This document shows, in pieces, positions 17,930 to 57,598 of a stretch of 64,000 nucleotides of DNA. This DNA is from an uncultured Candidatus Saccharibacteria bacterium (lineage in GTDB: Bacteria > Patescibacteriota > Minisyncoccia > Phycocordibacterales > G965230995). Every line of letters begins with the position of its first letter. The stretch's first letter is position 1. The DNA lies in the NCBI GenBank assembly GCA_965230995.1, contig OZ246398.1, positions 656,213 to 720,212 on the forward strand, in the 5' to 3' direction. The notes beneath the pieces were generated by a model. It ran no database searches. It was given only the letters and a program-made list of their open reading frames with translations, and was not told the DNA's origin. Made by a program: the position numbers and the translations under genes.

Positions 17930-17985
17930 TTGATTTTTTTATAGAACTGTTGTATAGTAATAATAGGTTCGAAACAGTTCCTAAT
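17930..17985 (+). promoter_or_regulatory. promoter of island B gene (TTGATT-17-TGTATAGT) bracketed by 8-bp inverted repeat GAACTGTT / AACAGTTC; predicted transcript starts at ATAGGTTCGAAAC
   Basis: -35 at 17930-35 and extended -10 at 17951-58. The inverted repeat at 17944-51 and 17972-79 flanks the -10/TSS region. Confidence 0.5.
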
Positions 17986-18011: not shown

Positions 18012-18383
18012 ATGGACGCTGACAGACCTGGAATAGTGATCACCACCAGGGCAGACATCTCTCAGTTCGAGTTCCTGCGTCTGGTTCAGGATGGGTTGCT
18101 CAGATTCATCTGCGAACACGACGATTTAGAGGGGCAGTTCGTAGCCGTGGAGATTAATCTCTCCGACAGTAACCTGCCCGCACGTGGTGAGGGCATCGAG
18201 GCAGAAATCAAGTTCATCTTCTGCTACGACCGGATGACGAGCTTTCCGAGGTATCACCGCTTCTCAATCAACATGGGGAAGCAATTCCTTGAATCGGATA
18301 ACGTTCGCATGATCCACTCGGAGTTCCTTGACAACAGGGACAGCATCACCGTCAAGGCACGTATGGCACTTGCACAACAGTAA
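18012..18383 (+). CDS. hypothetical protein (123 aa) in GC-rich island B
   Basis: About 52% GC ORF with GAGGTG Shine-Dalgarno, own promoter and own terminator. No recognisable domain. Confidence 0.55.
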   Translation: MDADRPGIVITTRADISQFEFLRLVQDGLLRFICEHDDLEGQFVAVEINLSDSNLPARGEGIEAEIKFIFCYDRMTSFPRYHRFSINMGKQFLESDNVRMIHSEFLDNRDSITVKARMALAQQ

Positions 18384-41997: not shown

Positions 41998-42500
41998 ACC
42001 GATTAAAAACAGAAAAGCCCGACACGATAATCAGACTAATCTGTTCCGTGTACGGACTTGTGCTACTTCTCCTGACTGCTGGAACGGGTCGCACGACCGA
42101 AATCTGTGGCGAAAAGCTCCTTGATATACTTTTCGTGTTTCATCCAGAATTCGATATTCCGTTCGAGCTCGGTACGAACTCGGCTGGGCGCAAGCATACC
42201 CCGCAAGACAACTGCCCGATTGAGACACTCGTCGTAGTTGAGGAACTTTTGCCCCTCATCACGCGCCGAGAACCTCATCTCTACTTTGCCCTTCTTCTTC
42301 AACATAATCCTCGCAATGCCACACTTTTTGCTGAATTGCGACAGGACTTGAGAGAAGATCGCGTTGTTCAGAGCAAGAGCAACCTCGTCTCGAGCGCTGC
42401 GGCATGACTTTCGAGTCATGTGAACCCCCAAAAAATCTAAGAACTGAGAATCGAAGTTTCGAACCTATTTATAAATGATAATCAAAAAAATATTTACAGC
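41998..42500. other. GC-rich island C (single-gene foreign-composition cassette between convergent rnr and smc)
   Basis: About 55% GC. Own promoter, leader motif ATAGGTTCGAAAC and terminator-like hairpin. Confidence 0.65.
42063..42419 (-). CDS. hypothetical protein (about 118 aa) in GC-rich island C
   Basis: ATG at 42419 (the ORF track's extra 4 codons start at a TTG). GGGGG Shine-Dalgarno upstream. The plus-strand 119-aa ORF is judged a shadow ORF. Confidence 0.5.
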   Translation of the reverse strand: MTRKSCRSARDEVALALNNAIFSQVLSQFSKKCGIARIMLKKKGKVEMRFSARDEGQKFLNYDECLNRAVVLRGMLAPSRVRTELERNIEFWMKHEKYIKELFATDFGRATRSSSQEK

Positions 42501-45601: not shown

Positions 45602-46498
45602 CTATTTATTTGATGCCAATATTTTTATTGATTTTGTTATTAATGGCAAAATATCATCATAAAAATTAAGGTCTGTAATATCCTCGACATCAAACCATTT
45701 TGCATCGTCGAGACCACCTGTTTTTTCAAGAGATATTTCTTTGAAATCAGTTTTTGCAAGGAAATAATTGACTCTCTTTCTGATTTTTCCAATCTCTGGG
45801 TCATATGCAATGTATTCGTTTACTCCCAAATCAGCGATTATTTCTATATCAAGACCGATTTCTTCTTTGATTTTCTTCTTTGTTCCTTCTTTTATATCAA
45901 GACCTTGTTCTAATTTACCTTTTGACAATGTCCAATGACCAAACACATCGTGAACCAGAGCAACAAGAATCTTGCCTTCTTTTTCGCAATAGACAACTGC
46001 CCCACCCAAATCCAAAATCGGCGCTTCGCTATCAGGAATATTCTTTATCTTTTTTTTTGGTTTGTCGTCTTTACCCGGTTCGCCCATTTCTTTGTAGACG
46101 GCACCGAGGACACCGTTGACGAATTTTCCGCTAGTGTCCCCACCAAATGATTTTGCAAGTTCAATTGCTTCGTTTATAGCAACCTTTGGTGGAACTTCGC
46201 CTCTATCAGAAAACAAGAGCTCAAAGAGTCCAATCCTCAAAATATTTCTATCTACGGTTGATATCTTTTCAAGTGGCCAGTCTGGAGCCGCCTTTGATAT
46301 GACAACATCTAATTCTTTTTTTCTTTTTATAACACCATCGAGGAGAGAATCCATAAATGATTCGTCAGCAAGCCCTTGAGAAAATTCTTCTTTGTTTCGT
46401 ATAAATGCTTTCATAGCATAATCAACACTCTCATTTCGAAAGTCTTGTTCGAATAGAGTCTGAAGAACTATTTGTCTTGAAAGGTGCCTATTTGCCAT
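45602..46498 (-). CDS. nusB: NusB-domain / NUDIX-hydrolase fusion protein
   Basis: N-terminal about 140 aa NusB-like (RHLSRQIVLQTLFE...). C-terminal half carries Nudix box GHWTLSKGKLEQGLDIKEGTKKKIKEEIGL. Confidence 0.7.
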   Translation of the reverse strand: MANRHLSRQIVLQTLFEQDFRNESVDYAMKAFIRNKEEFSQGLADESFMDSLLDGVIKRKKELDVVISKAAPDWPLEKISTVDRNILRIGLFELLFSDRGEVPPKVAINEAIELAKSFGGDTSGKFVNGVLGAVYKEMGEPGKDDKPKKKIKNIPDSEAPILDLGGAVVYCEKEGKILVALVHDVFGHWTLSKGKLEQGLDIKEGTKKKIKEEIGLDIEIIADLGVNEYIAYDPEIGKIRKRVNYFLAKTDFKEISLEKTGGLDDAKWFDVEDITDLNFYDDILPLITKSIKILASNK

Positions 46499-46834: not shown

Positions 46835-47581
46835 TTAGGCCTGGATTTTTGAAAATAGGTAGCTACCGAGGCTCAAAAATACTAGATTAATTAGAAGCAA
46901 AACAACAATATCTGTTGTTAATCCTATATGTGAAGTATTGGTCAGTAACCCCCTAAAGGCATCGATACCGTAGGTAAGAGGATCTATTCTAGATAAAATA
47001 GCGAGAACTTTTGGTATACCCTCGAGAGGAAACAGAGCTCCCGACAGAAAGAAAATCGGCATGACCAAAAAGTTCATAATGATTTGAAAGCCTTGCATAT
47101 CAGTTAGCTTTGATGCAATTGCCGTACCGAGTGCCGTAAATGCACACGCCACCAAAAACATTACAAAAACTAGCGGTATAACATTCCACCAAGAATCTGG
47201 CCTAAAACCGATAAATAGAGAAAGTATAAAAACCAAAATTCCCTGCATCACAGCAACCGTTGCCCCACCCAGAGTTCTACCCAACATAATATTAAATCTC
47301 GATATAGGTGCGACGAGTGTTTCCTTTAAAAATCCAAACTGTCTATCCCAAATTAATTCAATTCCAGAAAATATCGCCATAAAGAGTATTGTCATTCCGA
47401 TAATTCCTGGAGCAAGAAAATCAATATAATTTCCACCACCCGCTTTTGAATAAACAGGTCCAAAACCGTAACCCAGAGCAACTAAATACAAAACCGGCTG
47501 GCCAAGAGAACCAATAATTCTTGCCCTAGAACGAAACGACCTTTTTATTTGTCTCAACCAAAGAATATATATTGTTTTCAT
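46835..47581 (-). CDS. ABC-2 type transporter permease
   Basis: 248 aa with 6 TM segments. Adjacent to the ATPase gene. Confidence 0.75.
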   Translation of the reverse strand: MKTIYILWLRQIKRSFRSRARIIGSLGQPVLYLVALGYGFGPVYSKAGGGNYIDFLAPGIIGMTILFMAIFSGIELIWDRQFGFLKETLVAPISRFNIMLGRTLGGATVAVMQGILVFILSLFIGFRPDSWWNVIPLVFVMFLVACAFTALGTAIASKLTDMQGFQIIMNFLVMPIFFLSGALFPLEGIPKVLAILSRIDPLTYGIDAFRGLLTNTSHIGLTTDIVVLLLINLVFLSLGSYLFSKIQA

Positions 47582-47582
47582 A

Positions 47583-48374
47583 TTATCTTCTGTTCATTTT
47601 TCTCCTCATTCTCATAACATCGAGCGAACTTGCTTCTTCTTCTCTAATAGTTGTACCTGTTAGGGCCAAAAATGCCTCTTCGAGATTATTTGTTTTTGTC
47701 TGTGTTTTTAATTGTTCTGACGTACCCGAAGCAATTATTTTTCCGTGGTCAATAATAGCTATTCTTTGAGCAATCTTTTCTGCTTCTTCCATATAATGAG
47801 TAGTAAAAAATATTGTTGTTCCCTCTTCTTGGTTTAATTTTTTTAGATACTCCCACATATGATTTCTCGTTTGTGGGTCGAGACCTATTGTAGGTTCATC
47901 AAGAAAAAATATTTTTGGATGATGCAGTAGACCGCGAGCAATTTCGAGTCGCCTCTTCATACCACCAGAAAATTCCTTTACAAAGCTGTCCTTTCTGTCC
48001 CAAAGATCAACAAACCGAAGCAATTCTTCCATTCGTGTTCTTCGAACTTTTTTTGGTATATCGTACAAAACTCCATGAAATTCAAGATTCTCCCATGCGG
48101 TGAGCTCATCGTCGGTACTCGGATCCTGAAAAACAATACCGAAAGAACGCCTGGCTTCATCAGGATTTGAAACCGGGTCAAAATCATTTAATCTCAGAGT
48201 TCCAGAGGTTGGATCAAGTAGTGTTGTGAGCATCTTTATTGTTGTGGATTTTCCTGCACCGTTCGGTCCAAGAAAAGCAAAAATCTCTCCTTTTTTTACG
48301 TCGAAAGAAATATCATTTACTGCAGTAAAGTCCTTGAATTTCTTTACTAAATTTTTTACCTCAATACTATTCAT
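47583..48374 (-). CDS. ABC transporter ATP-binding protein
   Basis: Walker A GPNGAGKST, signature SGGMKRR, Walker B FFLDEP. Confidence 0.9.
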   Translation of the reverse strand: MNSIEVKNLVKKFKDFTAVNDISFDVKKGEIFAFLGPNGAGKSTTIKMLTTLLDPTSGTLRLNDFDPVSNPDEARRSFGIVFQDPSTDDELTAWENLEFHGVLYDIPKKVRRTRMEELLRFVDLWDRKDSFVKEFSGGMKRRLEIARGLLHHPKIFFLDEPTIGLDPQTRNHMWEYLKKLNQEEGTTIFFTTHYMEEAEKIAQRIAIIDHGKIIASGTSEQLKTQTKTNNLEEAFLALTGTTIREEEASSLDVMRMRRKMNRR

Positions 48375-48418
48375 AATTCTCGGTATTCTATCACAAAAAT
48401 TTTAAATAAACAAAAAGC

Positions 48419-48449
48419 GTCCGGTTTCGGGGGTGGAACCCGAAACCGG
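48419..48449 (-). terminator. rho-independent terminator of island D gene (TCCGGTTTCGGG-ggtggaa-CCCGAAACCGGA)
   Basis: 12-bp perfect stem. T-run on the minus strand (CGCTTTTTGTTTATTT). Confidence 0.7.
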
Positions 48450-48465
48450 ACGCGAGGACGGACGC

Positions 48466-48882
48466 TCACTTGCTGGCAAGAAGCCAGAGAGCGATGAACC
48501 CGGCGAGAATTCCTGCGACCTTGCGGACCGTGAGTTCACCACTCATCACCATGTGGTAGACTGCCGGAACGGCAAACTGTACCACAAGCATGATGAGGAA
48601 GTACTTCCCGATTTCCGCTTGACTCGCCTTGGCACAGATGGTGTTAAGTGCCAGGACGCCAATCGCCCCGATGAGTCCTGCCAGCAACGCGATGAGGAAC
48701 GATCCTTTATCGTGTGCGACAGTCTGACCAAAGAGGGGTAGCGTAAACCCTACAACAAACGCAATTGTCATCGCCCACAACCACGAGGCGAACGGGCCCG
48801 AAAGCCCAGAGCGACTCATCACTAAGGGCCAGGCTGCGAAAGACAGACCAGTCACAACAGCGAGGATGTAGTACCGCATCAA
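48466..48882 (-). CDS. small 4-TM membrane protein (SMR/DMT-like architecture) in GC-rich island D
   Basis: 138 aa with four hydrophobic helices. AGGAG Shine-Dalgarno. Confidence 0.55.
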   Translation of the reverse strand: MMRYYILAVVTGLSFAAWPLVMSRSGLSGPFASWLWAMTIAFVVGFTLPLFGQTVAHDKGSFLIALLAGLIGAIGVLALNTICAKASQAEIGKYFLIMLVVQFAVPAVYHMVMSGELTVRKVAGILAGFIALWLLASK

Positions 48883-49032
48883 ATTCTCCTGGTTCGTTGT
48901 TCACAAAGTCCAATTCGTCTTAAATGATAACATATTGTATATAAAACGTCAATATATAAAGGAAATATGCACACACATTTAGCACTTTTTAGTAGGATTA
49001 GTTATTAATTAAAAATAACAATATTTTGTTTA

Positions 49033-49644
49033 TTACATTTTTATCCAAGTTTTTCTATGGATATCAGATATTCCGTGTTTTTTTATCGCTTCAATATGCT
49101 TTTTTGTCCCATAGCCTTTATGAATATGAAAGTCATATTGTGGATATTTTTTTGATATCTTTATCATATATCTATCTCTAGTGACTTTTGCCATCACTGA
49201 TGCCATACCAATTACAGGAATTAAACTGTCCCCTTTTATAATTGTCTTTTGTTTTGTAAATTCTTTAGGGGCGTACAGTGAACCGTCGAGAAAAACCTCG
49301 ACATCTTTGCAATCTCTTTCAATTTTTTGCAAAATCTTTTTCAGAGATTTTGAGAGTCCATATTTTATTGCAAAAGAAATTCCTTTTTTATCAATTACCT
49401 TTTCACTAACCAAAGAAACTTCAAAAAAACATTTTTGTTCTTTTGCAAATTCATACATATCCAAAAAAATTTCTTCTCTTTTCTTTACGGTAAGTTTTTT
49501 TGAGTCATTTGCATCTTTTAGGACTTTCTTTGTAAATCTTTTTTCTAGAGCAAATACAGAAACAGAAACTGGTCCAGCAAGAGGGCCTCTACCTGCTTCA
49601 TCAATTCCTATTATGTATTTTGACTGCTTTTTCTGCATACACAT
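49033..49644 (-). CDS. rnhB: ribonuclease HII
   Basis: IIGIDEAGRGPLAGPV active-site motif. Confidence 0.9.
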   Translation of the reverse strand: MCMQKKQSKYIIGIDEAGRGPLAGPVSVSVFALEKRFTKKVLKDANDSKKLTVKKREEIFLDMYEFAKEQKCFFEVSLVSEKVIDKKGISFAIKYGLSKSLKKILQKIERDCKDVEVFLDGSLYAPKEFTKQKTIIKGDSLIPVIGMASVMAKVTRDRYMIKISKKYPQYDFHIHKGYGTKKHIEAIKKHGISDIHRKTWIKM

Positions 49645-57044: not shown

Positions 57045-57598
57045 GAAAGGCTTTACATTATTGACTGATGTGGTACAATAGAGAACCAGAAGCAAGGCTA
57101 CATGCTCACTCGGGTATGGTCTTGTTTAGAAAATTCTTTTTTTGAGAGGGCTACAAAATGGCCAAAAAAAAATCAGAGCCACTGGCAGTACAGAGGATGA
57201 AAACCTTCGTAGGAAGGTTTCCCGTCCTGGTCTCAAGCCGTGAAAAGCTCTCGGAGCTTCGGGTCCTCCAGTTGGTACGCCAGTCCTTGCTGGCCCCCGG
57301 CAATGACACCGTCGACACCAGGACCATCGACGAACTGGTGGAGGAGGGTTTGTCCGTAGATGCCGCGTACAGGTCACTTTTGTACCCGACCGGTACGGGC
57401 TACGAAGTGGACGAGAAGCTGTTCAACAATTTCTACACCATCTACGGTGCGTTGAAGTTGATGAAGCGGCGCCCAGACATGTGTACCACCAGAACCTTCA
57501 GTGTGAAGAAGGTGGTAGCCTGAAGCATGGTCTAGCCACCCATGCAGGAGTAAGCCGCGCAATCCCCCGGGAAAGTGCGGCTTCAACGTTTATACTAG
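57045..57598. other. GC-rich island E (single-gene foreign-composition cassette between gyrB and pheT)
   Basis: About 55% GC. Promoter TTTACA-16-TGgTACAAT. Confidence 0.6.
57158..57523 (+). CDS. hypothetical protein (121 aa) in GC-rich island E
   Basis: ORF with GAGAGG Shine-Dalgarno. Minus-strand ORFs here are judged shadow ORFs. No recognisable domain. Confidence 0.5.
   Translation: MAKKKSEPLAVQRMKTFVGRFPVLVSSREKLSELRVLQLVRQSLLAPGNDTVDTRTIDELVEEGLSVDAAYRSLLYPTGTGYEVDEKLFNNFYTIYGALKLMKRRPDMCTTRTFSVKKVVA

Follow-up and report, generated by a model that had tools for sequence, protein, structure and literature searches.

Island D, a probable horizontally acquired half-size EamA transporter gene in the housekeeping array of an ultra-small Patescibacteria genome

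Transporters of the drug/metabolite transporter (DMT)/SLC35 type consist of two inverted five-helix repeats, and their proposed ancestor is a five-helix protein that forms a dual-topology homodimer (PMC9574504). Half transporters of the DUF606/YdcZ family, as far as the work of Lolkema et al. (2008) is summarised in PMC3962082, occur as dual-topology homodimers, as heterodimer pairs and as fusions, and a near-zero bias of Lys plus Arg residues (K+R bias) together with a singleton gene is the dual-topology signature of EmrE, SugE, CrcB and the homodimeric DUF606 members (PMC3962082). As regards the movement of genes, most of the individual transfers detected in Patescibacteria run between Patescibacteria (PMC12455944). 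Here we have analysed a stretch of 64,000 nucleotides of the Patescibacteria contig OZ246398.1 (the window, to which all positions refer unless another contig is named), in which a GC-rich block between an ABC transporter ATPase gene and rnhB, called island D, encodes a small membrane protein. Island D is likely to be a functional, horizontally acquired half-size EamA gene equipped with its own promoter and terminator, the product of which would work as a dual-topology homodimeric transporter.

The composition of the block is clearly distinct from that of its surroundings. The mean GC content of the window is 0.371, and 300-nt windows across 48400-48899 climb to 0.55-0.56, while the 40-nt profile steps up at about 48417-48420 (0.25 to 0.68) and down at about 48900-48915 (0.50 to 0.28). 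The two profiles together delimit a block of about 500 bp (48417..48915, minus strand) with a GC of about 0.56, extending from about the predicted transcription start through the end of the terminator hairpin. The open reading frame (ORF) within it has a GC of about 0.554-0.557, which corresponds to a z of about 7 relative to the 46 other, host-type ORFs (mean 0.363, standard deviation 0.027, range 0.307-0.421). Its GC at third codon positions (GC3) is 0.65 against 0.23-0.32 in the host genes, and the codon-position GC of the 137-aa frame (0.57/0.44/0.65) follows a coding-type pattern. The anomaly is genuine, sharply bounded and located at synonymous sites, so that the block of foreign composition, which the original prediction had placed between the ABC ATPase gene and rnhB on reading the sequence alone, is confirmed.

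Island D is a complete, self-contained transcription unit of the minus strand. The promoter scan placed a -35 box, TTGACG, at 48947..48952 (minus strand) in AT-rich DNA, followed after a 17-nt spacer by an extended -10 box, TGT-TATCAT, which was found by the scan and by reading of the sequence at 48924..48932 (minus strand; TATCAT itself at 48924-48929); 10 of the 12 consensus positions are matched and the TGn extension is present. This is the TTGACG-17-TATCAT promoter named beforehand in the original prediction. The number of promoter-like sites in this stretch, two against 1.5 expected from shuffles, is not above chance, and the promoter is plausible, supported by its position and quality and not statistically proven. 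Transcription from it would start near 48917, which would give a 5' untranslated region of about 38 nt. The AGGAG Shine-Dalgarno sequence, likewise announced earlier, was read at 48886..48890 (minus strand), 6 nt upstream of the ATG at 48879, and the coding sequence of the single-EamA-domain (half-size DMT) membrane protein, 137 aa and a stop codon, occupies 48466..48879 (minus strand) according to the ORF list, the public gene calls and the homologues. A product of 138 aa had been expected at first; the public gene calls give 137 aa, and the longer reading would begin at a TTG only 3 nt past the Shine-Dalgarno sequence. The intrinsic terminator (48404..48453, minus strand) was recognized by the terminator scan, the inverted repeat search and RNA folding alike, and consists of a G+C-rich stem of 15 perfect base pairs (48453-48439 / 48431-48417), a 7-nt loop and then UUUUUGUUUAUUU. 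Its fold of -32.6 kcal/mol (z = -5.9) was not equalled by any of 200 shuffles; the perfect hairpin of the original prediction was thus found, with a stem of 15 instead of 12 bp. The gene would be transcribed from its own sigma-70-type promoter, and its transcription would be stopped by this strong terminator just upstream of the ABC-2 operon.

The terminator has a close neighbour on the same strand: a candidate promoter of the ABC operon, TTGTTT-17-TGATAGAAT at 48375-48416 (minus strand), overlaps by eye with the T-tract of the island D terminator. It leaves a leader of about 5-8 nt before the ATG of the ABC ATPase, and an obvious Shine-Dalgarno sequence was not seen there by eye.

The product of island D is a member of a sizeable protein family. 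An exhaustive HMMER scan of 1.84 billion cluster representatives (clusters at 50% identity) retrieved 232 homologous representatives at E <= 1e-3, among them 88 at E <= 1e-10. Nearly all of them are 132-140 aa long and align end to end at 30-45% identity (the closest homologue of the window protein being 44% identical), and a few are 155-188 aa long and align through a single domain only. A word-index protein search had matched the query alone, and the orfan status that it suggested was overturned by the exhaustive scan. In an alignment of 80 sequences G11, F14, W17, P18, S24, L26, G74, Q101, G123, A127, L133 and L134 are near-invariant and are all kept by the window protein; a tighter family alignment added N79 and P105 to the conserved set. 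AlphaFold2, run on the family alignment, gave a model with a predicted local distance difference test score (pLDDT) of 93.4 and a predicted template modelling score (pTM) of 0.79, in which five helices are predicted (residues 2-23, 28-49, 60-84, 87-113 and 118-135) with a concordant hydropathy profile. Accordingly, the four membrane helices assumed at the outset have to be replaced by five.

It was the relatives of the protein that disclosed its likely affiliation. Searched directly, the window protein found no significant family in Pfam, NCBIfam, PHROGs, PADLOC or the sequences of the Protein Data Bank (PDB), no NCBIfam model covers the island D family, and the family profile has no relative among the PDB sequences. 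The EamA domain of Pfam (PF00892) is matched by 36 of the 80 aligned members at E <= 0.1, with a best value of 1.1e-9 and matches spanning positions of about 3-134 of the 135 in the profile; three of ten members tested exceeded the gathering score of 28.2 bits, with 34.0, 32.5 and 29.8 bits. The window protein in turn joins the family alignments end to end with E values from 1e-21 to 1e-10. As judged from these sequence comparisons, the family is a divergent single-EamA-domain branch and corresponds to half of a 10-helix DMT transporter. It is an uncharacterised branch within a very large, known EamA/DMT superfamily, and the gene taken alone is ordinary, the chief oddity being the several other foreign single-gene inserts of the same genome. 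SMR (small multidrug resistance) proteins carry an essential membrane-embedded Glu in helix 1. An SMR/DMT-like architecture had been put forward for the island D product, and only its second half could be upheld: the relatives match EamA end to end, while no SMR family is among the Pfam/NCBIfam matches of the window protein or of its relatives and no conserved membrane-embedded Glu is seen.

The charge distribution of the family suggests how half a transporter might function. Among the 80 family members the K+R bias has a mean of 0.04 with a standard deviation of 1.27 (range -3 to +3); that of the window protein is +1. The family hidden Markov model (HMM) matches one ORF only in the 64-kb window, and no second copy of the family was found beside the homologues in the contexts L082-L085. 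Since a near-zero K+R bias is combined here with a singleton gene, an antiparallel homodimer is proposed: the bias of about zero suggests a dual-topology homodimer that would rebuild the 10-helix DMT fold. Two copies of the protein would be inserted into the membrane in opposite orientations, the opposite copies would pair as an antiparallel homodimer and so recreate the inverted-repeat DMT fold, and the dimer might act as a secondary transporter of a small solute by alternating access. There is no conserved membrane-embedded carboxylate or other acidic residue in the helices of the family alignment, and for this reason a facilitator or exchanger is likelier than a proton antiporter of the EmrE type. 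The conserved polar and aromatic residues lie on helices 1, 3 and 4 (W17/P18, N79 and Q101/P105/Y108), the helices which we take to be cavity-lining in the structure of YddG. The neighbours of the family genes differ in each context (def; a Mg-chelatase-like gene and type IV pilus genes; smc; UDG; rnhB and the ABC-2 pair), therefore no clue to the substrate could be gained from them.

The surroundings of island D are those of a conserved housekeeping array. The gene is flanked by the ABC ATPase (PF00005), which is accompanied by an ABC-2 permease, and by RNase HII (PF01351), and housekeeping genes stand close together in the window, among them enolase, typA, RNase R, smc, rnc, nusB-Nudix, rpmF, rnhB, dnaE, thrS, gyrB and pheT. 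The nearest DnaE sequences are at most 66% identical in the genome scan, where they come from metagenome-assembled genomes of the Paceibacteria/Parcubacteria type, and at most 64% identical in the metagenome scan, which points to a poorly sampled small-genome Patescibacterium as the host. These relatives keep the order smc-rnc-nusB-(rpmF)-rnhB-dnaE-thrS-gyrB without the island D gene and without the ABC-2 pair between rpmF and rnhB, and in about 160 dnaE neighbourhoods of relatives the family HMM found no member near dnaE. The comparison of the syntenic site, which the original prediction had recommended, thus shows the gene to be absent there; a host-typical transporter in syntenic position in relatives, which would have spoken against a foreign cassette, was not seen, and the composition anomaly is present. 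An independent short-read assembly from Logan and the NCBI contig of 742,714 bp, the longest public contig with the island D protein, show the identical arrangement, and this agreement rules out an assembly chimera; the neighbours are alike in all six contigs that carry this ABC ATPase (6/6), and a version of the locus without the island is not on record. Island D was almost certainly acquired horizontally, and its gene would have lodged in a variable spot, between rpmF and rnhB, of an otherwise conserved housekeeping array.

A separate observation concerns the ABC-2 pair itself. The ATPase and permease genes (46835-48374, minus strand) have a host-like composition, yet they are also absent from this position in the relatives; it seems, therefore, that the stretch between rpmF and rnhB is variable and has taken in genes repeatedly.

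The composition of the family genes in other contexts was informative with respect to the donor. Two of them are native and AT-rich, with a GC of 0.29 in surroundings of 0.32 (L083) and of 0.285 in surroundings of 0.30 (L085), and the gene on the GC-rich contig L167 is equally native there (0.578 in surroundings of 0.58), its protein being 40% identical to the window protein. A clear outlier is found in L084, a locus syntenic with the window over smc-RNase R-S16-KhpA: the family gene has a GC of 0.484 and a GC3 of 0.54 in surroundings of 0.40, where smc and RNase R have a GC3 of 0.33-0.34. The gene of L168 is a weaker outlier (0.42 in surroundings of 0.33, with only about 300 bp of flank), and that of L082 (0.46 in a locus of 0.35) gives a weak case, since the genes of this heterogeneous locus range from 0.26 to 0.46. 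This pattern, taken together with the transfers described within the phylum (PMC12455944), indicates a GC-rich Patescibacterium as the donor, which probably had a GC of about 55-58%.

Several points weigh against the proposed acquisition of a half-size EamA gene and should be considered together. The window protein has no EamA match in Pfam even at E <= 10, the best match being DUF5904 (E = 0.008, 16.6 bits), and since it stays below all Pfam/NCBIfam thresholds its assignment to EamA is transitive, by way of its relatives. No donor was found, the best homologue being only 44% identical. The relatives available for the comparison of the site are distant (DnaE at most 66% identical), so that the absence of the gene there means that it is not ancestral to the wider group and leaves the gain undated. 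The promoter stands in host-like AT-rich DNA and may thus not have been brought in with the gene. Finally, no direct repeats, target duplications, recombinase, integrase or transposase were found in the flanks of island D.

Among the competing explanations the one that fares best regards island D as the cargo of a discrete, promiscuously moving mobile cassette, be it of an integron type, similar to a miniature inverted-repeat transposable element (MITE), or a small transposon. The original prediction had held a promiscuously transferred cassette plausible, and the unit is indeed compact and self-contained with sharp composition edges; moreover, its codon bias is common to four other GC-rich single-gene units of the window, and junctions of the same kinds are filled by unrelated GC-rich genes in relatives. 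A perfect 11-nt inverted repeat, AATAAACAAAA / TTTTGTTTATT, also brackets the unit at 48405-48415 / 49024-49034. The 11-mer, however, consists of A and T only, resembles the usual T-tract of the host's terminators and has no counterpart at the four other islands, and the bracket is probably due to chance. Besides the lack of direct repeats, target duplications and a flanking recombinase mentioned above, neither conserved end sequences nor a motif common to the five islands was found, nor were attC-like sites or shared flanking repeats. Both tblastn and blastn searches of island D against plasmid and phage collections remained without a match, and the tighter family alignment found no relatives in the viral-contig collection. 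In the light of these results the term cassette was too strong, and we regard a mobile cassette as unlikely.

A native, vertically inherited gene, whose high GC would come from an Ala/Gly/Leu/Val-rich membrane protein or from selection on the transcript, is still less probable, that is, very unlikely. The family occurs in Patescibacteria-like genomes and so is typical of the host phylum, the promoter region is host-like and AT-rich, and the amino-acid composition alone lifts the expected GC: host codon preferences applied to the island D protein give 0.43 (0.431). The observed value is 0.557, and the excess is found at synonymous sites, as the GC3 values given above demonstrate, whereas the ABC permease, a membrane protein of the host encoded next door, has a GC of 0.38 and a GC3 of only 0.32. 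The AT-rich members in the AT-rich genomes of L083 and L085 mean that there is no intrinsic GC requirement in the family. For island D the log-likelihood ratio of synonymous codons favours the codon usage of the other islands, taken as a pool, by +0.32 per codon, against -0.40 to -0.70 in 35 of 35 host genes. This codon analysis has largely refuted a native origin, and the lack of the gene in the approximately 160 syntenic neighbourhoods argues in the same direction.

The original prediction had also named holin-like proteins and membrane effectors of abortive-infection systems. A holin-like product, or an effector of abortive infection or defence that disrupts membranes, is highly improbable. 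The product is a small polytopic membrane protein, as such proteins would be, and it has a weak PADLOC match to PycTM (E = 0.03, 12.6 bits). Nevertheless this match, the only one in PADLOC, is below any meaningful threshold and covers hydrophobic helices only, the PHROG matches have E values of 0.4 or more, and viral or phage relatives are missing from the collections searched. There is no adjacent cyclase, sensor, lysis, phage or defence gene, the neighbours being rnhB and the ABC-2 pair; the family matches EamA along its full length and its homologues stand solitary among housekeeping genes. Practically negligible is the possibility of a structured non-coding RNA with a by-product ORF, or of an assembly chimera or contaminant, because, although structured RNAs classically show up as GC-rich islands in AT-rich genomes and several overlapping ORFs of 46-102 aa lie within the block, there is no Rfam match in it, its GC1/GC2/GC3 pattern is coding-like, 232 homologous protein clusters and a confident fold prediction exist, and the junctions are identical in independent assemblies.

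Island D, the horizontally acquired gene proposed here, is accompanied by four further GC-rich islands in the window: island A (6425-7645, plus strand; GC 0.53, GC3 0.75), island B (18012-18383, plus strand; 0.52 and 0.69), island C (42063-42431, minus strand; 0.51 and 0.64; listed as an ORF of 122 aa, with the likely ATG at 42419) and island E (57158-57523, plus strand; 0.54 and 0.73). All four have a stable 3' hairpin and, in AT-rich DNA, a promoter-like site; none has a match in Pfam, PHROG or PADLOC. The island-type codon bias is common to all five islands (GC 0.51-0.56), which are placed between conserved housekeeping genes, and in each of them the GC-rich stretch starts close to the predicted transcription start. 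Homology among the proteins of the GC-rich islands, in the window and in the relatives, was not found.

Some details of individual islands may be recorded here. The product of island A is a signal-peptide protein for which the word-index search gave no homologue, and the Logan assembly lacks a gene call for island C. An exact 13-mer, ATAGGTTCGAAAC, is common to islands B and C, directly downstream of their -10 boxes and at about the predicted transcription start (17963-17975, plus strand, and 42456-42468, minus strand); allowing for up to two mismatches, the count of this 13-mer in the window is not above chance.

Comparable genes were found in the relatives as well. By the same criterion of an outlying GC3, five ORFs were detected in the 64 kb of the window (about one per 13 kb), against 11 in 1.9 Mb of relatives (about one per 170 kb). 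The unrelated GC-rich small genes of the relatives have a GC of 0.48-0.57 in genomes of 0.38-0.45 and include ORFs of L039 (5190-5756 and 11635-12144), L040 (5363-5959 and 1352-2065), L048 (5290-5874) and L084 (936-1286 and 3780-4127), and three ORFs of L111. The junctions occupied by such genes are rnhB|dnaE in L039, L040 and L048, thrS|gyrB in L039 and smc|RNase R in L084. Island C is situated at the last of these junctions too, and the L084 gene found there is not its homologue. These findings suggest recurrent permissive insertion sites at housekeeping junctions. According to the simplest reading, an AT-rich genome that takes up environmental DNA mostly gains genes that are richer in GC than its own, and few intergenic junctions tolerate an insertion. 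A systematic process, by which promoterless genes would be captured repeatedly from one GC-rich partner at a few permissive landing pads and activated by promoter-like, AT-rich DNA of the host, is possible, rather doubtful; the partner in such a process may be a host organism or a co-resident Patescibacterium.

Other features of the window were noted in passing. NusB and a NUDIX hydrolase domain (PF01029 and PF00293) form a fusion at 45602-46498 (minus strand), and tblastn matches that cover most of this fusion at the same position suggest that it exists in the relatives too. A group I intron (Rfam RF00028, 65 bits; 4779-5071, minus strand) adjoins the ORF of a GIY-YIG endonuclease (PF01541, E = 1e-11; 5107-5400, minus strand), and between 5400 and 6425 there is no long ORF and no further Rfam match.

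Ultra-small Patescibacteria depend on the import of metabolites, and little is understood of the set of transporters that they possess. Island D offers a clean, well-delimited case of an almost certain single-gene acquisition in such a genome (about 743 kb), while the density of GC-rich single-gene units hints at a recurrent route of gene capture in it. The family, with at least 232 clusters at 50% identity, a length of about 135 aa and a balanced charge, would be a living example of the proposed five-helix dual-topology stage in the ancestry of DMT/SLC35 transporters, and it could serve as a minimal model system.

Four kinds of system described so far invite comparison. SMR proteins such as EmrE and Gdx/SugE have four helices in about 105-110 aa, whereas five helices are predicted in the 137 aa of the island D protein. 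As a transfer event, island D resembles the single-gene transfers of Patescibacteria (PMC12455944) in that one gene of the membrane-transport class is concerned, in a streamlined genome and with mainly Patescibacteria-like relatives; in contrast to those transfers it was recognized by the very abrupt change of composition at its edge and as a complete unit from promoter to terminator, and at least five such units are present here within 64 kb. With the DUF606/YdcZ half transporters it shares the five-helix unit, the singleton gene, the near-zero K+R bias and the expected antiparallel homodimer. The families matched by the island D members, however, include EamA and not DUF606; furthermore, pairs and fusions are known for DUF606/YdcZ, and none were seen for the island D family in the contexts examined (L082-L085). 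A likeness is also seen to the EamA transporters (PF00892), 10-helix proteins such as YddG and RhtA, which have the same five helices per domain and whose profile is matched end to end by the relatives of the island D protein. Classical EamA proteins contain two fused domains, while the island D protein has one domain of 137 aa that is too divergent for a direct Pfam match. The EamA mechanism is alternating access by way of a cavity that lies between two five-helix units inverted relative to each other (PMC9574504), and the same is proposed for the island D protein, in which the two units would be contributed by two copies of a single polypeptide.

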